Origin: Spirochaetia bacterium
Lineage (GTDB): Bacteria; Spirochaetota; Spirochaetia; DSM-2461
Assembly: GCA_963668315.1 (NCBI GenBank)
Contig: OY764216.1
Location: 3,456,001 to 3,520,000 of the forward strand
DNA: 64,000 nucleotides
Reading direction: 5' to 3'
The notes under the pieces are model-generated. The model ran no database searches. It was not told the DNA's origin and saw nothing but the letters and a program-made list of their open reading frames with translations. Both the position numbers and the translations under genes were made by a program. Below, in pieces: positions 19,596 to 30,333 of the stretch (the stretch's first letter is position 1; each line of letters begins with the position of its first letter).

Positions 19596-21152
19596 GTGAA
19601 AATGTTCAGCAGGTTAAGATTAGGTTATGTCAAGACTGGTCTTGTAATGATGTGCGCCCTTATGGCTGCCAGCTTATTTGCCAATGGAAGCGAAGAGGTC
19701 GCCGGATCGGCCAACTCTGCCAAAACGAGAAAAATTTCCGTTATGCTTTTCGACCGTGGAAATGTACCCAATGAGGCGGGTACGATACAGGATAATAAAT
19801 GGACCAACTGGATTCATGATCAGATGATGGAGGCCTACAATATCGATGTCTCCTATTTCATCATGCCCCGAAGCGAGGAAATCGCGAAAGTTCCCATTCT
19901 CATGGCGTCCAATTCCGCCCCTGATATAACCTACCACTACGGTACGAATAACATTATCAACTGGTTCAACGACGGGGGGATATATGACCTGAACCCCTAT
20001 CTGTCACAGTACGGTCAGGACATCGTGGCCAATCTGGGCGACGACGTTCTCCTGGACGGCAGAACCACAGAGGGAGAGCAGTACGCCATTCCCACCAAGA
20101 GATCGACAATAACGAAATTCAACGTTTTCATCAGAAAGGACTGGCTGGATAAGCTGGGAATGGACGTTCCCGAAACGGTGGACCAGCTCTACACGGCGCT
20201 CAAGGCTTTCAAGGAAGAGGATCCGGGCCATGTCGGCAAAGACCAGGTCATTCCCTACTGGCCCGGCTATATGACGGAGTACTCCTTTCTTAAGAATACC
20301 GATCCCGCCTCCTATGCCGCCAGCTATGTCAACCACTGGCAGTATCTGGACCCCGGCTACAAAGACTCCCTTGAATGGCAGAACAAGCTCTATAACGAGG
20401 GGCTGATCGATCCCGAGTACTTTACCGACAAGGGTAACGCCCGGCTCAAGGAAGCCTTTGTTACGGGCAAACTCGGCTATTTCGAGCAGAACGTGAATTT
20501 TAACATGAAAACCAACTACGGCTCCCTTCTGAAAAATCTTCAGAAGAACGTGGATGGCGCCGAATTCGTTTCCATCGCCCCCATCCGGAATGTTAACGAC
20601 GGCAAGGTATATAATCCCGTTTATCCTCCCTCCGGCGGTCTTTCCTTCGTTCCCAAATCTTCCAGGAACCCCGAAGCCTGCGTGCAGTACATGAACTTCA
20701 TAGCCGGAGACGGCGGATTCCATGTCTATTTCGGTTTCGAAGGAGAGCATTACAACCTGGTGGACGGCGTTCCCGTGGCTATCGACGGAGATTATAATGC
20801 CCGCGACAAGGACTGGATCAACAACGATCTGGCGCTGACCTTCGGCATGACCGAGGAACTGTTCATCAAATCCGTTGTGAAATCCTTCCCCGGATATGAA
20901 AGCTATGTGGAAGATAACTATGCGAATGCCCTGGCTGGCGTTCATCTCAATGCCGACCACCAGCCCTACGACCAGGAAGTAAACGATCTATCCGCCGCGG
21001 TCAAGAAAGTTCACTCCGATTACCAGGTGAAGCTGATCACATGCAGGCCCGGTGAGTTCGATACCATCTGGAACGAATATCAGGACGAAATGGAAAAGGC
21101 CGGTTCGGACCGGATCATCGAATTAAGAAAGGCCATGTACGGTCTGGATTAA
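19596..21152 (+). CDS. ABC transporter solute-binding protein (LplA-like, oligosaccharide)
   Basis: Signal peptide with ANGSEE; IRKDWLDKLGMDVPETVDQLY motif; permease genes follow. Confidence 0.88.
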   Translation: MKMFSRLRLGYVKTGLVMMCALMAASLFANGSEEVAGSANSAKTRKISVMLFDRGNVPNEAGTIQDNKWTNWIHDQMMEAYNIDVSYFIMPRSEEIAKVPILMASNSAPDITYHYGTNNIINWFNDGGIYDLNPYLSQYGQDIVANLGDDVLLDGRTTEGEQYAIPTKRSTITKFNVFIRKDWLDKLGMDVPETVDQLYTALKAFKEEDPGHVGKDQVIPYWPGYMTEYSFLKNTDPASYAASYVNHWQYLDPGYKDSLEWQNKLYNEGLIDPEYFTDKGNARLKEAFVTGKLGYFEQNVNFNMKTNYGSLLKNLQKNVDGAEFVSIAPIRNVNDGKVYNPVYPPSGGLSFVPKSSRNPEACVQYMNFIAGDGGFHVYFGFEGEHYNLVDGVPVAIDGDYNARDKDWINNDLALTFGMTEELFIKSVVKSFPGYESYVEDNYANALAGVHLNADHQPYDQEVNDLSAAVKKVHSDYQVKLITCRPGEFDTIWNEYQDEMEKAGSDRIIELRKAMYGLD

Positions 21153-21159
21153 TCCAACA

Positions 21160-21186
21160 GGACGGGCGGATGCTTTCCGTCCGTCC
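21160..21186 (+). terminator. Intercistronic stem-loop after the binding-protein gene
   Basis: GGACGGGCGGA-tgctt-TCCGTCCGTCC. Confidence 0.55.
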
Positions 21187-21211
21187 TTACCCGCTTTAGA
21201 GGAGTTCATTA

Positions 21212-22159
21212 ATGAATAGAACCTTAACCGGAGGGGAGGGGATCGAATGGGAAAAAAAGACCCCTTTCTTCTATCTGAAAAGAGACAGCCTGCTCTATCT
21301 GCTTTGTCTGCCCGCCCTCATCTATCTTGTCATCTTCAAGTATATTCCCATGTACGGAATAACCATCGCCTTCAAGGATTACAACCTTTTCAAGGGAATC
21401 CTGGGGAGCGACTGGGCGGGATTCGTCTATTTCCATCAGATTTTCACCGATAGAAATTTCTGGCTGACCGTGAGAAACACCCTGGTCCTGAATCTTCTGG
21501 TGCTGGTCGTTTCCTTTCCCGCCACCATTCTTCTCTCCCTGTTCCTGAATGAGATCAGCAGCAAAATGTACAAACGGGTGGCCCAATCCCTTCTGTACCT
21601 TCCCCATTTCATCTCATGGGTCGTCGTCGCCGGTCTTCTGCAGAACCTTTTTTCCGTCAAATACGGTTCCGTAAACTATCTGCTGACCAATATGGGCATG
21701 CAGCCGGTGCCCTTTATGCTGGAAGAGAACTGGTGGATTTTCACGTATGTTCTCGCCCAGGTATGGAAATCCCTGGGATGGGGGACCATCATCTACCTGG
21801 CCGCCCTGTCCGGGGTCAACGAATCCCTTTACGAATCGGCCTATCTGGACGGCGCTTCCAAGGCCCAGCGGATGTGGTACATCACTCTTCCCTCCATCAA
21901 GCCGACCATTGTTATTATGCTGATTCTTTCCATCAGCAAGATGATGACCATCGGCCTTGACGCGCCCCTGCTCCTGCAGAACGCCAAGGTTCTGGACGTG
22001 GCGGAAGTTATCAGTACCTATGTTTACAAAATGGGACTGGAAAGGGTGCAGTACAGCTTCGCCACGGCCGTCGGACTGTTCCAGTCGCTTATCAACATTA
22101 TTTTACTTGTGCTGGCCAACGGCATCACCCGTGCCATGGGAGAGGAGGGAATCGTATGA
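21212..22159 (+). CDS. Carbohydrate ABC transporter permease (LplB-like)
   Basis: YLPHFISWVVV and EAA loop (YESAYLDGAS). Confidence 0.92.
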   Translation: MNRTLTGGEGIEWEKKTPFFYLKRDSLLYLLCLPALIYLVIFKYIPMYGITIAFKDYNLFKGILGSDWAGFVYFHQIFTDRNFWLTVRNTLVLNLLVLVVSFPATILLSLFLNEISSKMYKRVAQSLLYLPHFISWVVVAGLLQNLFSVKYGSVNYLLTNMGMQPVPFMLEENWWIFTYVLAQVWKSLGWGTIIYLAALSGVNESLYESAYLDGASKAQRMWYITLPSIKPTIVIMLILSISKMMTIGLDAPLLLQNAKVLDVAEVISTYVYKMGLERVQYSFATAVGLFQSLINIILLVLANGITRAMGEEGIV

Positions 22160-23058
22160 CAGGAATGCAAGGAAGAGCCCGGAGTTCCCTGAATGGGGAA
22201 AAAGTGGGATCGGGGCTGAATTATTTTTTCACCACCATCCTGGTTATCGCCTGTGTCTATCCCTTTCTGAATGTTATCGCCTATTCCCTCTCCAGCGGAA
22301 GGGCCATCCTTTCGGGGTGGGTCACATTTCTCCCCCGGGAGTTTCAGCTTGACGCCTATAAGGCTGTGCTGATGAAAAAGAGTATCTGGGATTCCATGGG
22401 GATTACCATATTCGTAACCTTTACCGCCACACTGCTCGGGCTGGTTCTGACGACACTGTCCGCCTACAGCCTTTCCAAGAAAAGGCTCAAGGGACGCTAC
22501 TTTATCTCCCTCCTTTTTCTTTTTACCATGTACTTCAGCGGAGGTATCATTCCCACCTTCATCGTTGTGAAGAACCTGGGCCTGATAAACCGCCTGGGCG
22601 CGCTGATACTTCCCAATGCTTTCAGCGTCTTCAATTTCATCGTCATGAGAACCTTTTTTCAGCAGCTTCCCGAAGAGCTGGAAGAGGCGGCGATTCTCGA
22701 CGGCTGCAATGACCTGGTGGTACTGGTCCGCATCATGCTTCCCCTTTCCATGCCCATCATGGCCACGATCGGGCTTTTCTATGCGGTAGGCCATTGGAAC
22801 GAATACTTCAACAGCATGATGTATATTAACGACCCCTCGAAATTTACTCTGCAGCTGAAACTCAGACAACTCCTTTTCACGGAGGAGCTAGCCCAGATGA
22901 GCGGGAATTTCGATCTAGTGGACGGGAACAATACCAGTATGCCCGAATCGCTTAAAGCCGCTTCCATCGTCATTTCCACCATCCCTATTATCGTTGTATA
23001 TCCCTGGCTGCAGAAGTATTTTGTCAAAGGGGTGATGATCGGTTCCATCAAGGGGTAG
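22156..23058 (+). CDS. Carbohydrate ABC transporter permease (LplC-like)
   Basis: FSGGIIP, EEAAILDG and YPWLQKYFVKGVMIGSIKG motifs. Confidence 0.92.
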   Translation: MTGMQGRARSSLNGEKVGSGLNYFFTTILVIACVYPFLNVIAYSLSSGRAILSGWVTFLPREFQLDAYKAVLMKKSIWDSMGITIFVTFTATLLGLVLTTLSAYSLSKKRLKGRYFISLLFLFTMYFSGGIIPTFIVVKNLGLINRLGALILPNAFSVFNFIVMRTFFQQLPEELEEAAILDGCNDLVVLVRIMLPLSMPIMATIGLFYAVGHWNEYFNSMMYINDPSKFTLQLKLRQLLFTEELAQMSGNFDLVDGNNTSMPESLKAASIVISTIPIIVVYPWLQKYFVKGVMIGSIKG

Positions 23059-23063
23059 AAAAA

Positions 23064-24206
23064 ATGGGTATAGGAGATATCTCAAAGGGAACCATAGTAT
23101 CGAGGAGAGACCCTCTGACCGGAGTGGAAGTAAGGAAGCTGACCGGGGATGAGGGGAATACCATTCATCCCTACTTCACCCAGCCGCTTTTTTCCGGCGA
23201 CGGGCGCTATCTGCTGACCGCTTCGGACCGGACCGGATCATGGCAGCTGTATACGCTGGAAATCAGGACGGGAGACATGGTGCAGCTCACCGACGACAGG
23301 GAGGTGGGATTCCAGTCCGCCCAGTTGGACGGAACGAATTTCATCGCCTATTACTGGAGCGGATCGGTGTTGAAATCGGTGGACTGCCAGACATTGAAAG
23401 GGGATGAGTACTACCGGGTACCCGAGGGGTTTCTGCCGGGAAGCCTTTCCATGACGAGTGACGGGAGATTCATTGATTTCTGCTATTCGGAAAAACTGGC
23501 CCTCAGTACTTATACGGGGAAGCTGTATTCCGATATGAAGGAGACCTTTTTCCGCAGGCCCTCATCCCTGGTCATGAGACTGGGGGTCGGTGATAAATCG
23601 GCTCAGCCTCTCTGGGGAGAAAGACGGTGGATAAGCCATATTATAACTAACCCGGCAGATAACAGGTTCGTCGTCTATAATCATGAAGGCCCATGGCACC
23701 TTCTTCAGAGGACATGGGTGATAAATGCCGACACCCTTGAAAATTACCCGATCGTCGAAACGAAAACACATTTTGAACGGGCCGGCCATGAGTTCTTTAC
23801 CCGGAAGGGAAATATCGTGACCCAGTATGGCTACAGAACATCTCCCGCGGATAAATACTGGAAATGCGCCGATCTCTTTATCAAGCCCGATGGAACCGGA
23901 GAGAGACGGTATGAGTATAAGCCGGGGGCTAAGTCAATGCATGTCCAAGTGAATTCCCGGGAGACCTTGGGAATCGCCGACGGCTATTTTGTCCCGGGGG
24001 GACCGGAGGACGGAAACAATTACATGTCCCTTGTCCGGTATGAAGAGGGACTGGCCAAACAGGAAATGCTCTGTGTTCACGGTACCTCCTGGAAAACGCA
24101 GCATTCCCATCCCCATCCCGTATTCACTCCCGATGACAAGTACGTCATCTTCGGCTCCGATATGGGAGGAAAGAGCAATGTCTATATGGCTCCGGCAGGA
24201 CAATAG
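23064..24206 (+). CDS. Oligogalacturonate lyase family protein (PL22-like beta-propeller)
   Basis: DPLTGVEVRKLT, HPYFT, NHEGPW, GHEFF and HPHPVFTPD motifs. Confidence 0.82.
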   Translation: MGIGDISKGTIVSRRDPLTGVEVRKLTGDEGNTIHPYFTQPLFSGDGRYLLTASDRTGSWQLYTLEIRTGDMVQLTDDREVGFQSAQLDGTNFIAYYWSGSVLKSVDCQTLKGDEYYRVPEGFLPGSLSMTSDGRFIDFCYSEKLALSTYTGKLYSDMKETFFRRPSSLVMRLGVGDKSAQPLWGERRWISHIITNPADNRFVVYNHEGPWHLLQRTWVINADTLENYPIVETKTHFERAGHEFFTRKGNIVTQYGYRTSPADKYWKCADLFIKPDGTGERRYEYKPGAKSMHVQVNSRETLGIADGYFVPGGPEDGNNYMSLVRYEEGLAKQEMLCVHGTSWKTQHSHPHPVFTPDDKYVIFGSDMGGKSNVYMAPAGQ

Positions 24207-24220
24207 GAAAGGGGAATAAT

Positions 24221-26260
24221 ATGAAAATTGATAGAAAAAGAGTCGTTCGCCGTCATAACCCCCGATACAGGGAGATGAATACCCAGGCTCCCCTGAGTGT
24301 GGGAAACGGGGAGTTCGCCTGTTCGGTGGACATAACGGGCCTTCAGAGCCTCTATACCCAGTATGACGAAGTTCCCCTCTGCATACAGAGTCAGTGGGCC
24401 TGGCACTCCTGGAGCCGTACTGAGGCTTTGTCCCCCGACAGGAGCGATCTTGCTCCGGTCATGGTGGAAACTCCCCAGGGGCGAAAGCCCTACTACATCA
24501 GTAACGCCGGACAGGAAGAGGAGTATGACTGGCTGAGAAAAAATCCCCATCGGCCCAACCTGGCAAAACTATCCCTTCGGTATGGAAAGGATTCTGAAAG
24601 CCTTTCTCCTGAGGAGGTAGATCAGGAGTTGGACCTTTATTCGGGAATTATCAGAAGTCGTTTTTCCGACCGGGGTAATGCTTTCTCCGTCAGAACGGCT
24701 TGTCATCCCTACAGGGATATCCTGTGTACGGAAATCACATGCTCCCGGGAAGAGAGCTATACCGTGGGGATCTCTTTTCCCTATGGGGATCCGGGGATCT
24801 CCGGTTCCGACTGGAACAGAGGCACTATCCATAGCACACGTGTGGCAAAGAGGGATAATAACCGACTCATTCTTGAAAGAGTTATGGATAACTGCCGGTA
24901 TTTTGTGAAAATAGACAGTAACGGAACTCTGCTGACCGACGGGATCGGGATGCATGAAATTGTTCTTTCCTTTCCTCAGGGGGGAGAACCCCTGACTATC
25001 ACTTGTTCCTTTTCCCCTGCCATAGATGGCGGGGAGAAAGATTCCGACCGGTCCGTATTTGAGGAAAGCGAAAGACATTGGTCCCGATTTTGGGAAAGGG
25101 GCGGTATCATCGATCTGGGAGATTCAACCGATTCCCGGGCAGGTGAGCTGGAGAGACGGACCATACTTTCCCAGTACCTGACAGCCGTACAATGTTCGGG
25201 CAGTGTCCCTCCCCAGGAGACGGGTCTGACTTGCAACAGCTGGTTCGGTAAGTTTCATCTGGAGATGCACTACTGGCATGCGGCTCATTTTCCCCAGTGG
25301 AACAGGCCCGAGCTGCTGGCCAGAAGTATGCCCTGGTATCTGAATCATAGGGACAGAGCGGAGGAACTTGCCCTATCCCAGGGATTCAAGGGACTCCGCT
25401 GGCCCAAAATGGTAGATTCCTCCGGCTATGACAGCCCTTCAAACATCGCCCCTCTGCTGATATGGCAGCAGCCCCATCCCATCATGTTCGCCGAACTCAT
25501 CTATCGGGCCCGTCCCGATCGGGATGTACTGGATCTGTACGCTCCTCTGGTACAGGGCTCGGCGGAATTTATGGCTGATTTTGCTTCTCCCGACGGGAAG
25601 GGCCGTTATTGCCTGGGGCCGGGTCTCATCCCTGCCCAGGAGAACCATCCTTATAGAATGGCCATGAATCCCACCTTTGAACTGGAGTACTGGAAATTCG
25701 GACTGGAAACCGCCAATCTCTGGAGACAGAGAAGAGGCCTTCCCCCGGAACCCCGGTGGGAGGATATCTGCCGTAATCTGGCCCGGCCGTCATCGGGAGA
25801 GGAGGGTTACTGGGCCCATGAACAGTGTCCCGGGACTTATACAGACTATAATTATGATCACCCCTCCATGATGTGTGCTTTGGGAATGCTGCCGGGAAAA
25901 CTGATTGACAGGTCAGCCATGAAGAGAACCCTTGATTCGGTAAAGAAATATTGGCGCTACGACAGACTGTGGGGATGGGATTTTCCTGTTATGGCCATGA
26001 CGGCCGCACGGCTGGGAGACGCTGAACAGGCGGTGGATTTCCTTCTGGCTCCGGGCGTGAAGAATATCTACCTGCCCAACGGCCATAACCGGCAGGAGGG
26101 GCGTAAAGATCTTCCCCTCTATCTGCCGGGGAACGGCGGGTTTCTCATTGCCATGGGAATGATGGCCGCCGGATGGGACGGCGCCGATGCCGTCTCGCCC
26201 GGTTTCCCGAAAAACAGGAACTGGCAGGTCCTATGGGAGGATATCCTCCCGATCGTTTAG
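24221..26260 (+). CDS. Putative six-hairpin glycoside hydrolase (GH65/GH95-like, specificity unknown)
   Basis: PLSVGNGEFA, PPQETGL..NSWFGKFHLEM, NPTFEL and WGWDFP motifs; lies in a pectin-type operon. Confidence 0.65.
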   Translation: MKIDRKRVVRRHNPRYREMNTQAPLSVGNGEFACSVDITGLQSLYTQYDEVPLCIQSQWAWHSWSRTEALSPDRSDLAPVMVETPQGRKPYYISNAGQEEEYDWLRKNPHRPNLAKLSLRYGKDSESLSPEEVDQELDLYSGIIRSRFSDRGNAFSVRTACHPYRDILCTEITCSREESYTVGISFPYGDPGISGSDWNRGTIHSTRVAKRDNNRLILERVMDNCRYFVKIDSNGTLLTDGIGMHEIVLSFPQGGEPLTITCSFSPAIDGGEKDSDRSVFEESERHWSRFWERGGIIDLGDSTDSRAGELERRTILSQYLTAVQCSGSVPPQETGLTCNSWFGKFHLEMHYWHAAHFPQWNRPELLARSMPWYLNHRDRAEELALSQGFKGLRWPKMVDSSGYDSPSNIAPLLIWQQPHPIMFAELIYRARPDRDVLDLYAPLVQGSAEFMADFASPDGKGRYCLGPGLIPAQENHPYRMAMNPTFELEYWKFGLETANLWRQRRGLPPEPRWEDICRNLARPSSGEEGYWAHEQCPGTYTDYNYDHPSMMCALGMLPGKLIDRSAMKRTLDSVKKYWRYDRLWGWDFPVMAMTAARLGDAEQAVDFLLAPGVKNIYLPNGHNRQEGRKDLPLYLPGNGGFLIAMGMMAAGWDGADAVSPGFPKNRNWQVLWEDILPIV

Positions 26261-26265
26261 GGCTA

Positions 26266-26667
26266 TTACTCTTCAATCCAGGAAACGGAGGGAGGGCTGT
26301 CGTCCAGGGGAAAATAGACGACGGCTCCCTTCTTTCCGGGAAGCCCTTCAAAGGTCAGCCGGATATTCCTTCCGGCGACCACTTGGGATTCGGCCCTGAC
26401 AACGATAGCCTTTTCCCAATCGGAGGCCGTCCCTTTCCAGGCCTTCTGCGCCTCGGAGAATGCGCGCCGGGAATACTCCGAATTCCTGTCTATATCCTGA
26501 TAGCCTCCGGCTTTGATGTCCCGGGACGGTTCGTTGACGGGCATTTCCACCGGCTGAATATTCCCCTTCTCTTTCTGAAAGCTATCTTCCTGCTTGCCGA
26601 AGGAGAACAGGGTAGCAGAGCCCAGCATCAGAAGAAAAATCAGGCATCCGGATTTGAGGCATTCCAT
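26266..26667 (-). CDS. Secreted cystatin-like cysteine protease inhibitor
   Basis: Signal peptide, conserved N-terminal Gly (AGG), helix, then SQVVAG (QxVxG); GGAGG RBS; overlaps the protease 3' end. Confidence 0.72.
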   Translation of the reverse strand: MECLKSGCLIFLLMLGSATLFSFGKQEDSFQKEKGNIQPVEMPVNEPSRDIKAGGYQDIDRNSEYSRRAFSEAQKAWKGTASDWEKAIVVRAESQVVAGRNIRLTFEGLPGKKGAVVYFPLDDSPPSVSWIEE

Positions 26668-28907
26668 GCGCTTCCCTCCTTGTAGCCGACGATCGTCTGG
26701 GCGTGGTTGGTGGTGGACCAGGTGTATCCCGACTGGAAAACATCATTGCTGTCCAGATGGTCGTAGAGGCCGAGGTCGGAAGCGGAACCGTCGCCGGCAT
26801 AAATCCCTGTTGTTACGATGTAGCCCATGGAAAGAAGGCTCTTCAACAGCTGGATATCGGCATCATCTTCAATGGAAAAATATCCGATTTGGTAGTTGTC
26901 CCAGTAGTAATGGCCCACCGTATCGCCTCTGTACTGAACCGCTTCACGCCAGGCCTCTTCCGTGGGCCATGTGGTGGAATCGCCGGTATCGTAGGGCATG
27001 GTATCCCAGGTGGCGCAGCCCTGACGCCGGAGTGTTTCAACGGCGTAAATATAGCTAGATCCGTTGTCAACGCCATTATTGATCTGGTGGTAAATAAAAT
27101 CGGGGCTGAATATTTTATCCAGTGAAGAGTCGGGAGCGCCTCCGCTGGAAAGGCCTAAGGAATCGGAATCCCAGGATACACCGGAAAGGTCCCAGCCGTG
27201 TTCTTTGGCTTCCATGAAGGTATGAATATAGTAAGCCGTGGAAAAGGCTACGCAGGAGCCCTCGCTGCCTTGATTTCCGATGGGAGGGAAGTATTGGGAC
27301 TCGGAGTAGTCCAATTCCAGAGGGAGATCGGCACCGTTGAAGGTCCCACCTCTCGTTGTGGTTTCTGTTTCTATGGAATCCAGGGAATAGACATTCAGCC
27401 ACTCTTCCTCCGTAGGATTGATCCAGCCGGTCCTGTAGCCGCCGGAAGAAAGGACGCCGTTATCATTGTTCTCTGGATTTTTTTTCAGTAAGCTTTTAAT
27501 TTCGTCATCGGATATTTCGGACAAGACCAGAGAGGCGGATTCGCTTAAAGAACGGGATGCGCTAATAGCAGAAAGATCTGTTTCAGATATATTATTTGAA
27601 GTTTCTATTTTGAATATGGAAGAGCTGCCTGCTGAAATAGTTCCCGTCGACGTTGATGTAAGCGTATCCAGTGCGGGATTACTGTAATCATCATAGAGCT
27701 CTACGGAAAAACTATTAATACTGCCTGATGTAGAACCTATATTCTCAGCATAGAGATAAAGATCGTAATCGTTGAGATAGGTTGCGAATTCTGTTATATC
27801 AAGTACTATATCATGGGACGGAAAATCCAAATCTCCACCTGCTGGAATATCGGATGTGTTACGTGTTTCAAAGGTTTTACTCAAGTAAAAATCTTCCGCA
27901 TTGGTGGGTTGCGTAGAAGAAATACCCAAGGTGATTTTCATATCATTTCTGTTTTCATGGGATACATTGAAAACGGCTACAGCCTTTGGTTCATAAACAG
28001 TATCGGCATCGTTGAAATAGAAAAAGACGAACATATTGTTCGCGATCATATCTTCGTAGTCCATCCAGTAATGGCCGTCGGCAATGTTTTCCCAATCTCC
28101 TTTACCCCAGGAATTGACTAATTTAAAGGCTCCGTTTTCAAGGCCGTTACCGCTGCTTACAATAACAACAGCCGTATCATCGGGTAGGGTAACATTATTA
28201 TCTTCATTTAACTCAGGAATGCTGTTTTCAGGATCAATGATAACACCCAGATAATAAATACCAGGAGTAAGGTTGGGACAAGTTAGGTTAATGAATCCCT
28301 CTGTATGGAAATTATTTTCCCCTAGAGAGATAGATGACATATTTACGGAAACTAATTCTACATCGGATGAATTGATATTTCTGTCCGGGGATAAGTAATA
28401 TTTAACAACACAATTGGATGTTGAATTGTTGCCGATATTGTTGATATAGGAAAACAGATCATATTCATCACCGACACTCACTATTGCGTCATCATCAAAA
28501 TAATTGATTCCCATCCATAATTTGTTTCCAGGATACATATCGGGCCTTCCGGAATAAGCGGAAACCGTACCTAAATCACGAGTCCAGGTGCTGTCTGAAA
28601 TATTTCTTACAATAACATGATCACCTAAGGTAAGAGTCACATCTTGAACAGAACCTATACAGGGATTCCATGTATTTCCTCCATCCAATGAATATTCCAT
28701 CTGGGAACTTGTTCCTAATAATTGTTGATTGATAACATCGAGGTAAGGGGTAGATTGAAGTGTCTCGTCAAAAATCGAGTCGAAATCATTCTCAGAATAT
28801 GTAATAACAGTGTCTTCAAAATAATCATTAGTGCCCCCGCCGTCAGGACAGGACACAAACAGCAGCAAAATCAAAAAACTGAAAAAAGAGAAAAGAATCT
28901 TTTTCAT
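26640..28907 (-). CDS. Lipoprotein C1A (papain-like) cysteine protease with permuted catalytic motifs and a CARDB/Ig-like domain
   Basis: Lipobox LFVSC; CARDB-like segment (YYLGVIIDPENSIPELNEDNN); AFKLVNSWG; NQGSEGSCVAF; FSPDFIY; NHAQTIVGY. GGAG RBS before ATG 28907. Confidence 0.85.
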   Translation of the reverse strand: MKKILFSFFSFLILLLFVSCPDGGGTNDYFEDTVITYSENDFDSIFDETLQSTPYLDVINQQLLGTSSQMEYSLDGGNTWNPCIGSVQDVTLTLGDHVIVRNISDSTWTRDLGTVSAYSGRPDMYPGNKLWMGINYFDDDAIVSVGDEYDLFSYINNIGNNSTSNCVVKYYLSPDRNINSSDVELVSVNMSSISLGENNFHTEGFINLTCPNLTPGIYYLGVIIDPENSIPELNEDNNVTLPDDTAVVIVSSGNGLENGAFKLVNSWGKGDWENIADGHYWMDYEDMIANNMFVFFYFNDADTVYEPKAVAVFNVSHENRNDMKITLGISSTQPTNAEDFYLSKTFETRNTSDIPAGGDLDFPSHDIVLDITEFATYLNDYDLYLYAENIGSTSGSINSFSVELYDDYSNPALDTLTSTSTGTISAGSSSIFKIETSNNISETDLSAISASRSLSESASLVLSEISDDEIKSLLKKNPENNDNGVLSSGGYRTGWINPTEEEWLNVYSLDSIETETTTRGGTFNGADLPLELDYSESQYFPPIGNQGSEGSCVAFSTAYYIHTFMEAKEHGWDLSGVSWDSDSLGLSSGGAPDSSLDKIFSPDFIYHQINNGVDNGSSYIYAVETLRRQGCATWDTMPYDTGDSTTWPTEEAWREAVQYRGDTVGHYYWDNYQIGYFSIEDDADIQLLKSLLSMGYIVTTGIYAGDGSASDLGLYDHLDSNDVFQSGYTWSTTNHAQTIVGYKEGSAWNASNPDA

Positions 28908-28995
28908 AGGGACTCCCGAAGTAAAAGTAATATATGTACTATATCCCACTATCGGGCAAATTGCCATGCTTTTCCTTCAGGAGTCCCCGTATGTT

Positions 28996-30333
28996 CTATT
29001 CTTCCTCTTCGCAGTATTCACTCAGGGGAAAGAGCTCGTCTATGAGGACGGGCATGCCCCTTTTGAAGGATTCGTTTGCCGCGCAGCCGACAAGGATCGA
29101 TTTGGCTCCGTCGATGGAACCGGCCGCCGTTTTGAGGGGGTCGTCTCCGGCTCCCATGAAGACATCGCTCAGCAGGCGAAGATCTCCGCCTCCGTGTCCG
29201 CCGGCGCCTTCGTCCCAGGTGATATTCTGGGGTTTGCCCCACAGCTTCTGAAGGGTAATGGTCTCTTTCTGCTTGGGAGCCTTCATATCGTCGGTCATGT
29301 TGAAATCGGGATTGTTCTGGTCAAAGGCCGAGCTGGAGACGTAACCGGTTTCCACGATATCGATTTCTAGGCGGCCCTTGGTGCCGTTGAAGCTGACCCG
29401 GTAACCTTCCCAGGGACAGAAAGCGTTCAGGGCATAGGTCATAACGGTTTTCTTGCTGTATTTTACCACGAGGCTCATGGTATCCTCTATGGAGATGTTA
29501 TGGCCGAAGACGGACTGGTCGCGGATGTAGCCGTCCTCATGCTCCGCCTTCAGGTAGAGCCCCTCCATTTCGCCCCCGTCTTCCATGTCCAGAGCAAAGG
29601 GATCGTTCTTGGCGAATTCACTGCCGTGGCATCTTTCGTAGAATTTAGTTTCCCCTCGGTTTTCGGCGTTTTCCCTTCCGTAGAAAGCCAGACGGCCCAT
29701 TCCGAAAACTTCCGTGGGGTAGTCGTTAAGCCACCAGTTCATCAGATCGAAGTGGTGGGTGGATTTATGGACCATAAGACCGCCGGAATTGTTTTTGTCC
29801 CGGTGCCATCTTCTGAAATAGTCCGCTCCGTGCCTGGTATTCAGGAGCCACTCGAAATGGACGGAAAGCACATCGCCGATCTCGCCGGCTTGGATAAGTT
29901 CCTTCACCTTGGTATTTCGGGGGCTGTAGCGGTAGTTGAATGTTACGATCAGGTCTTTGCCCGTTTTTTCCTTTGTCTTGAAAATCTGGTTCAGTTTTTC
30001 CGCATCGGTGGTAAGGGGTTTTTCCGTGACAACATCGCAGCCCAGTTCCATGGCCCGGCAGATATACTTGTGGTGGGTTCTATCCATGGTGGTCACGATA
30101 ACCTTCTGGGGCTTCTGCTCTTCAATCATCCTGTCGAATTCGCTGCTGTGGTAGGTTTTAACCGGTTTGGCCCCGTATTTTTCCTGGAACTGATTATTGT
30201 ACCAGTCCATTCTCGTCTGGTTGATATCGCAGATTCCGACCAGCTCGGTCGTCTCTTTATAATCCTTCAATATGGCCTGGGAATACATTTTCGATCGGCT
30301 TCCCAGTCCGACGATGACATACTTTGTTTTCAC
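28996..30333 (-). CDS. Gfo/Idh/MocA family oxidoreductase (YteT-like)
   Basis: VGLGSR, EKP, GADYFRRWH, HKSTHHFD and GHGGGD motifs. Confidence 0.88.
   Translation of the reverse strand: MKTKYVIVGLGSRSKMYSQAILKDYKETTELVGICDINQTRMDWYNNQFQEKYGAKPVKTYHSSEFDRMIEEQKPQKVIVTTMDRTHHKYICRAMELGCDVVTEKPLTTDAEKLNQIFKTKEKTGKDLIVTFNYRYSPRNTKVKELIQAGEIGDVLSVHFEWLLNTRHGADYFRRWHRDKNNSGGLMVHKSTHHFDLMNWWLNDYPTEVFGMGRLAFYGRENAENRGETKFYERCHGSEFAKNDPFALDMEDGGEMEGLYLKAEHEDGYIRDQSVFGHNISIEDTMSLVVKYSKKTVMTYALNAFCPWEGYRVSFNGTKGRLEIDIVETGYVSSSAFDQNNPDFNMTDDMKAPKQKETITLQKLWGKPQNITWDEGAGGHGGGDLRLLSDVFMGAGDDPLKTAAGSIDGAKSILVGCAANESFKRGMPVLIDELFPLSEYCEEEE

Follow-up and report, generated by a model that had tools for sequence, protein, structure and literature searches.

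The window, the whole stretch of 64,000 nucleotides (nt) analysed here (Spirochaetia bacterium, contig OY764216.1, positions 3,456,001 to 3,520,000), carries on its minus strand a gene for a lipoprotein related to papain-type (C1A) cysteine proteases, termed P0001, and a second gene overlapping its end, which encodes a cystatin-type inhibitor (Table 1). P0001 is a single uninterrupted open reading frame (ORF) of 755 amino acids (aa), read as 28907..26640; the ORF list also holds a 775-aa form starting at an upstream ATG, and the lipoprotein-type signal starts at 28907. C1A enzymes have their catalytic residues in the order Gln-Cys-His-Asn, which is not the order found here; in P0001 they run Asn265-Gln546-Cys552-His735, and the protein was thus classed as a permuted variant and not as an ordinary member of the family.

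The first-pass annotation, made from the DNA letters, had placed AFKLVNSWG with Asn265, TGWINP at residues 493-498, LPLELDY from residue 528, and Gln546, Cys552 and His735; the translation has all of them at those places. Its claim of a 755-aa ORF without a second NSWG holds by translation and motif search as well, NSWG occurring once and the stop codon lying 20 residues past His735, and the beta-rich domain and propeptide-like segment that it saw after the Asn segment were both found. A search of its own genome returned P0001 as the sole copy. The signal peptide was called by the lipobox rule, while the small stalk domain had no match in a Pfam scan of P0001; the Asn segment, which also holds Trp267, comprises strands E9-15 and E29-33 of the AlphaFold model described below.

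Table 1. Features of the protease gene P0001 and of the overlapping inhibitor gene, in window positions.
Feature	Residues	Position	Strand	Basis
Circularly permuted C1A-type cysteine protease lipoprotein P0001	1-755 (755 aa)	26640..28907	-
Signal peptide with lipobox-like LFVS-C, Cys20 (putative lipidation site)		28848..28907	-	sequence and crude pattern
Small beta-rich stalk domain	~50-120	28548..28760	-	matches of many relatives begin at query 47-56
CARDB (immunoglobulin (Ig)-like) stalk domain	143-239	28191..28481	-	PF07705, E 2e-8, above cut-off
Relocated Asn segment ("light chain" equivalent)	259-298	28014..28133	-	profile, conservation, complex model
Asn265 codon	265	28115-28113	-
Beta-sandwich domain, PLAT/P-domain-like	~306-435	27603..27992	-	structural matches and reversed BLASTP match
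Putative linker, old C-terminus to old N-terminus; candidate processing region	436-458	27534..27602	-
Internal propeptide-like segment, GTG(W/L)xPP	459-525	27333..27533	-	aligns with canonical N-terminal segment, xylellain and procathepsin X
Cys-His half ("heavy chain" equivalent)	528-755	26643..27326	-	cathepsin L heavy-chain match, invariant residues
Gln546 codon	546	27272-27270	-
Cys552 codon	552	27254-27252	-
His735 codon	735	26705-26703	-
Cystatin-type inhibitor gene	133 aa	26266..26667	-	signal peptide, AGG (53-55), QVVAG (95-99)

The permuted family and its canonical relatives

A homologue search with residues 255-755 gave 372 proteins at E <= 0.001 among 8000 scored candidates, 120 of them listed, and each protein fetched was classed by the order of its two BLAST halves. 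The 120 listed matches (query included) comprised 111 permuted and 9 canonical proteins; a library clustered at 50% contributed 116 new ids (41 permuted, 56 canonical, 17 with neither half matched and 2 with one half), and 77 proteins from 76 of 80 loci were divided into 40 permuted, 36 canonical and 1 fragment, the loci L051, L057, L065 and L073 having been overlooked by the motif patterns and left out of the locus counts. The totals of 192 permuted and 101 canonical rows come from overlapping sets, so that rows are not distinct genes; thinning at 75% identity leaves 118 and 80, respectively. Permuted loci were found in Spirochaetota, Riflebacteria, Thermotogota and one Cloacimonadota bin, the rows spanning at least four phyla and those nearest to P0001 being Spirochaetaceae; canonical loci belong to Bacteroidota, Ignavibacteriota, Calditrichota, Bathyarchaeia, Thermoplasmata and others. 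The proposed search for homologues with the same order has thus yielded 192 permuted rows, and we conclude that the permuted protease family is real and conserved. Annotation pipelines mostly miss it, as most of the matches listed are named hypothetical or after their stalk domains; NCBIfam holds no family for either the protease or the cystatin, the ESM Atlas lacks the P0001 sequence, its nearest clusters being "hypothetical" or "C1 family peptidase" (0.93) with no order indicated, and a Foldseek search of viral structure models gave no full-length permuted match (best TMq 0.28).

Canonical relatives align with P0001 by BLASTP in two reversed high-scoring segment pairs (HSPs) with 36-44% identity in each half; in P0111, for example, residues 62-291 match query 490-742 (43%) and residues 283-449 match query 234-409 (39%). 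The canonical layout is signal, propeptide, Gln/Cys...His, loop, NSWG segment, beta-sandwich and C-terminal accessory domains, whereas P0001 runs from the lipid anchor through the Ig-like stalk, Asn segment, beta-sandwich, linker and propeptide to Gln/Cys...His and the stop. Canonical relatives have the beta-sandwich right after NSWG, and it was therefore rotated along with the Asn segment. The His lies 9-22 residues from the chain end in 188 of the 189 scored permuted rows (33 in the remaining one) and 28-30 residues ahead of the Asn in all 89 scored canonical rows, which puts the opening of the unit in the His-Asn loop and its closure at the linker, ~436-458. By these sequence comparisons, the whole unit of propeptide, Cys-His half, Asn segment and beta-sandwich is rotated; the natural circular permutation opened in that loop, as first suggested from the DNA, is supported by family conservation, the reversed HSPs, the AlphaFold model and the complex model. 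The suggestion that a propeptide-like segment has become internal stands as far as its position goes: a homologous segment lies internally and aligns with the canonical N-terminal segment.

The sister family of canonical order, multidomain C1 peptidases from bacteria and archaea (e.g. P0104, P0107, P0110, P0111 and P0115, some of them named "C1 family peptidase"), has the same four parts and catalytic residues as P0001, in which the order is rotated and the accessory domains are N-terminal, on a lipoprotein stalk, and not C-terminal. The same is seen across the family, the accessory domains occupying a median of 346 residues ahead of the Asn segment in permuted proteins and a median of 492 residues past the beta-sandwich in canonical ones. 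Among Met-starting proteins, which include related and some partial rows, a crude pattern found lipobox-like N-termini in 84 of 136 permuted versus 3 of 59 canonical proteins. Of the 192 permuted rows, 7 were removed by a length filter before conservation was scored; in the other 185, which amount to 122 effective sequences at 80% identity, Asn265, Gln546, Cys552 and His735 are invariant (185/185), and Trp267 is kept in 181. It is replaced in the other 4 rows, and the permuted relative P0224 has NSFG for NSWG.

An assembly artefact or one-off chimera would account for the order of P0001 without any family, and the GC content at third codon positions (GC3) could suggest one, being 0.24-0.42 in eight of the nine 50-codon bins to codon 450 and 0.54-0.76 in codons 451-750. 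Nevertheless, 192 homologous rows from at least four phyla share the order, family conservation by itself refuting this explanation, and contigs from three runs of one sample, possibly the source of the window, carry 26000-29200 unbroken and identical. We give this alternative practically no credence. Contigs of a second sample cover parts of the gene only. The flanking genes have a GC3 of 0.60-0.69, near that of 27557-26643, the half with lower GC3 being 28907-27558; the switch lies near the permutation linker, and past residue 500 P0001 also has a higher identity to P0002, its nearest relative. The 5' half was possibly swapped by recent recombination.

An unrooted tree built from 198 rows of the collinear half has one branch, with a support of 99 and one change, between the permuted and the canonical proteins. 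When 8, and then 5, distant canonical outgroups were included, with rows thinned to 68 and 48 and long outgroup branches, the canonical sisters came to lie within the permuted group (support 80-93 and 83-86, respectively), while a single permuted clade was not rejected by the approximately unbiased (AU) test (p 0.31); the canonical sample is biased toward the relatives nearest to the query. A single rotation is the simplest reading; alternatively, a second one may have restored the usual order and so given rise to the closest "canonical" family. At L085-L091 (e.g. L087 and L089), related spirochaetes carry a second, distant canonical C1A family with ~200-320 residues after the NSW motif, which served only as outgroup. 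At L002:2020-5494, two permuted protease genes without the CARDB stalk lie in tandem, with a single cystatin gene after them. P0163, which has just the Cys-His half, and P0225, which has just the Asn half, were considered as split forms and rejected, as they look like fragments or frameshifts; no search was aimed at shorter or split forms.

Other natural permutants of the papain-like fold are known, namely C92/YiiX, C97/PPPDE, LRAT, LupA and the OTU type, the last by its strand beta3, according to the part of the source available (PMC10318531). There, the C92/C97/LRAT type is described as having the Cys helix placed behind the His, and the OTU type as having rearranged strands, with the permuted strand still bearing the third catalytic residue. 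P0001 lacks the His-before-Cys order of the permuted NlpC/P60-PPPDE enzymes, as Cys552 precedes His735. In the same part, cluster I (papain, C1) is said to keep all core elements, and no permutation is reported in it (PMC10318531). C1A is among the best studied protease families, and what is known of its structure and function was described in a 2023 survey as "more or less completely solved"; in the sections of that survey available, multidomain prokaryotic C1A proteins are left unanalysed and permutation is nowhere mentioned (PMC10380794). We found no permuted C1A enzyme in the literature searched, a coverage that excludes most subscription journals. A natural permutant with close unpermuted sisters (~40% identity) offers a direct test of the role of chain order in folding, zymogen control and anchoring.

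Folded core and proposed activation

Two reversed Peptidase_C1 hits had been predicted in the first-pass annotation, but the Pfam scan of P0001 returned a single weak one (aa 528-625, E 0.011), which at 16.3 bits is below the PF00112 cut-off of 20.7. Four of the six permuted full-core relatives scanned (P0003, P0088, P0095 and P0103) passed this cut-off, and in each the match stops at profile position 176-178 of 220. By itself, the 46-aa Asn segment matched no Pfam family, and xylellain at E 0.31 only. In a profile built from 107 permuted proteins, early positions match the C-terminal Asn segment of xylellain (3ois 250-279) and Lpg2622 (6a0n 287-336), and the later part matches the N-terminus of mature cathepsins; procathepsin K was matched at E 1e-6.

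The AlphaFold2 model of aa 251-755 folds as one unit, with a predicted local distance difference test (pLDDT) of 92.0 and a predicted template modelling score (pTM) of 0.93. Its top match is xylellain (VIA Z 16.3, root-mean-square deviation (rmsd) 3.0, 203 residues aligned), the alignment starting in the pro-like segment; this establishes the papain fold, with C1A zymogens among the best structural matches and C1A proteins as the top Foldseek hits. In structure, the N-terminal regions of both procathepsin X and xylellain align with the pro-like segment. Model residues 278-501 (aa 528-751) have an end-to-end match in the heavy chain of cathepsin L (1icf_A 1-175; Z 13.5, rmsd 2.6, 170 aligned). 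The aligners used make sequential alignments only, in which the Asn strand could not show. For the beta-sandwich, a PLAT/C2-type domain (VIA Z 7.0, rmsd 3.0, 95 aligned) and furin 485-574 (Z 5.7, rmsd 3.1, 87 aligned) were matched with Z values too low for a family name.

Xylellain (PDB 3OIS) and Lpg2622 (6A0N), both bacterial C1A enzymes with ~21% identity, differ from P0001 in being single-domain and of canonical order. Two-chain cathepsin L (1ICF, heavy chain 175 aa) is broken in the same His-Asn loop as P0001; since its heavy chain aligns end to end, P0001 has a gene-encoded break in the loop where cathepsin L is cut post-translationally from a canonical precursor, and the piece with the Asn, presumably carried in cathepsin L by the light chain, comes first.

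A permuted chain with a ~23-residue linker could also exchange parts, so that the Asn segment and beta-sandwich would be swapped between the subunits of an oligomer and the active site formed in trans. However, the monomer is modelled with confidence as one unit (pLDDT of 90.5-92.0 over the five models), and the pTM of the single-chain model leads us to favour assembly in cis; a swapped active site appears improbable.

The fate of the internal propeptide is a separate matter. P0001 could be a permuted, active, single-chain enzyme in which this segment is a permanent regulatory lid, moved aside or only nicked and never excised: the segment is tied down at either end, the model shows it as well ordered, its GTG, PP and W are conserved, and the closest structure, aligned from its N-terminal region, is xylellain, which we take to keep an occluding N-terminal segment. 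On the other hand, the loop at 517-523 (model 267-273), just before Leu528, is the only inner stretch of low confidence (pLDDT < 50) and varies in length among relatives, as is usual at maturation sites, and C1A propeptides are normally removed, according to the available part of the survey (PMC10380794). We thus regard a permanent lid as possible but rather unlikely.

There is, instead, a good probability that P0001 is an active, naturally permuted C1A-type protease, working as an exported, lipid-anchored two-chain enzyme controlled by the cystatin; that it is active is very probable. It would be an exported protein with a lipid on Cys20, produced as a zymogen that the internal propeptide restrains, and its Asn segment would fold back in cis to complete the catalytic domain, where the models place Trp267 beside Gln546. 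A cut in the flexible loop ahead of Leu528, probably joined by another close to the 436-458 linker, would free or remove the propeptide and leave two non-covalently associated chains, as in mature cathepsin L but in the opposite order. The Asn chain runs on directly from the lipid anchor, so that the activated enzyme would remain membrane-bound at the tip of the stalk via its lipidated N-terminal chain, whereas the same cut in an N-anchored canonical zymogen would release the enzyme. We suggest that the permuted order has been kept because the Asn chain holds the enzyme on its anchor once the propeptide is cut; activation without release may be the reason why the rotation was selected. Breakdown of proteins or peptides at the surface or in the periplasm for nutrition is a likely role.

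The cystatin-type neighbour

The cystatin ORF, overlooked in the first-pass annotation, shares its first 28 nt with the end of the protease gene, an overlap of the same length being found in L002 and L004. Its start codon (26667-26665) is formed from the protease codons Ala747-Trp748; with the shared overlap, this suggests that conservation of the Trp in the protease tail may partly reflect translational coupling. A cystatin-type gene lies directly downstream in 14 of the 40 permuted loci (own locus included; one at a contig end), 12 of which were in the profile training set, L003 and the contig-cut L009 being new; none was found in the 36 canonical loci (11 without downstream DNA), where a weak match of L079 to the cystatin hidden Markov model was rejected, as the gene is a DUF4168. 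In L026:5481-5915, a chagasin-family (I42) lipoprotein (Pfam E 6e-19) stands directly after the permuted protease, in place of the cystatin. In L025:4782-5341 a cystatin-like gene is broken after ~55 residues and followed by unrelated sequence, possibly of an insertion element.

Pfam Cystatin stayed below its cut-off for single neighbour proteins, while the profile of 13 of them matches solved cystatins (best E 2.5e-8). In their alignment Gly54, Ala98 and Gly99 are invariant and Gln95 and Val97 occur in at least 90% of the rows, so both the N-terminal Gly and the QxVxG motif of cystatins are present. The model (pLDDT 85) has the cystatin fold, with cystatins as its top VIA rows (Z 10.4, 9.5 and 9.2), among them cystatin F (Z 10.4, rmsd 5.1, 84 aligned) and the cystatin chain of 1yvb (Z 9.5, rmsd 2.5, 82 aligned). 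The neighbour thus shares fold and motifs with the bacterial cystatins and stefins (I25).

The complex was folded as three chains, the cystatin and the two "mature" pieces of the protease (aa 255-438 and 526-755), and scored 0.92 versus 0.00 for the best of three controls, with runs agreeing in at least 77% of contacts and a partner pLDDT of at least 85; among 157 solved complexes 116 attain the score mark, as do 2 of the 215 pairs that were mismatched. In the model, cystatin Ala98 contacts Trp267 of the first piece and Gln546 of the second, Ala53 contacts Cys552 and His735, and Val96 contacts His735, which places the NSWG segment at the active site. As modelled, the exported cystatin would bind the active-site cleft, and it probably keeps the cell's own protease in check.

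The gene order and the conservation also bear on whether P0001 is an enzyme at all. It could be a catalytically dead or dyad-only derivative, with the NSWG segment serving a structural or other role, such as in an adhesin or binding protein: its Peptidase_C1 match is below the Pfam cut-off, and papain-like dyad enzymes without the third residue exist, as stated in the available part of PMC10318531. But the invariance of the four catalytic residues in all 185 rows, and the occupation of the next gene by two unrelated families of C1A inhibitors, make this very improbable.

Several points weigh against a lipid-anchored two-chain enzyme under cystatin control. No match to the lipobox pattern was found in 52 of the 136 permuted proteins, many of which are very long or partial; the tether argument therefore amounts to a trend. 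The mean-field covariation analysis of the 185 rows gave no clear pair between the Asn and His strands, although inter-segment pairs such as I288-D682 (rank 2) and V264-I543 (rank 16) ranked high; with a noisy signal and invariant key columns covariation is of little help, and it was not counted as evidence. The interface residues listed for the complex model do not include Asn265 itself; the pass of this model may come from likeness to solved papain-cystatin pairs and not from binding of this pair, and the job differed from the tool's calibration in having three chains and its own alignments. An intact cystatin gene is lacking in 26 of the 40 permuted loci, including all those of Riflebacteria and Thermotogota. 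Finally, Pro-Trp in the second hairpin is a motif of type 2 cystatins; the neighbour lacks this pair of the eukaryotic proteins, having FPL or YKDL there, and was therefore classed as cystatin-type and not as a type 2 cystatin.

In the part available of an earlier study, bacterial cystatins were judged unlikely to regulate the bacteria's own proteases (PMC2784779), while here the cystatin gene overlaps or follows a protease gene in 14 loci. This conserved gene pair makes own-enzyme control by bacterial cystatins testable and, if true, control by a co-translated cystatin would run against the published view that they act on host targets. We slightly favour the broader proposal of a widespread, undescribed lineage in which the chain break of cathepsin L is encoded in the gene and the chains are swapped, in which removal of the propeptide activates the enzyme without releasing it, and in which spirochaetes add control by a co-translated cystatin or chagasin.

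A promoter and terminator scan, not used as evidence, found a sigma-70-like site at 28967-28938 (10 such sites versus 4.6 expected) and no terminator directly after the cystatin gene. Convergent with the latter is a gene for a 679-aa glycoside hydrolase (24221-26260; GH95/GH65-like catalytic domain, Pfam E 2e-6), which closes an ATP-binding cassette (ABC) sugar-transporter cluster (19596-24206); these flanking sugar-use genes are probably unrelated to the protease.

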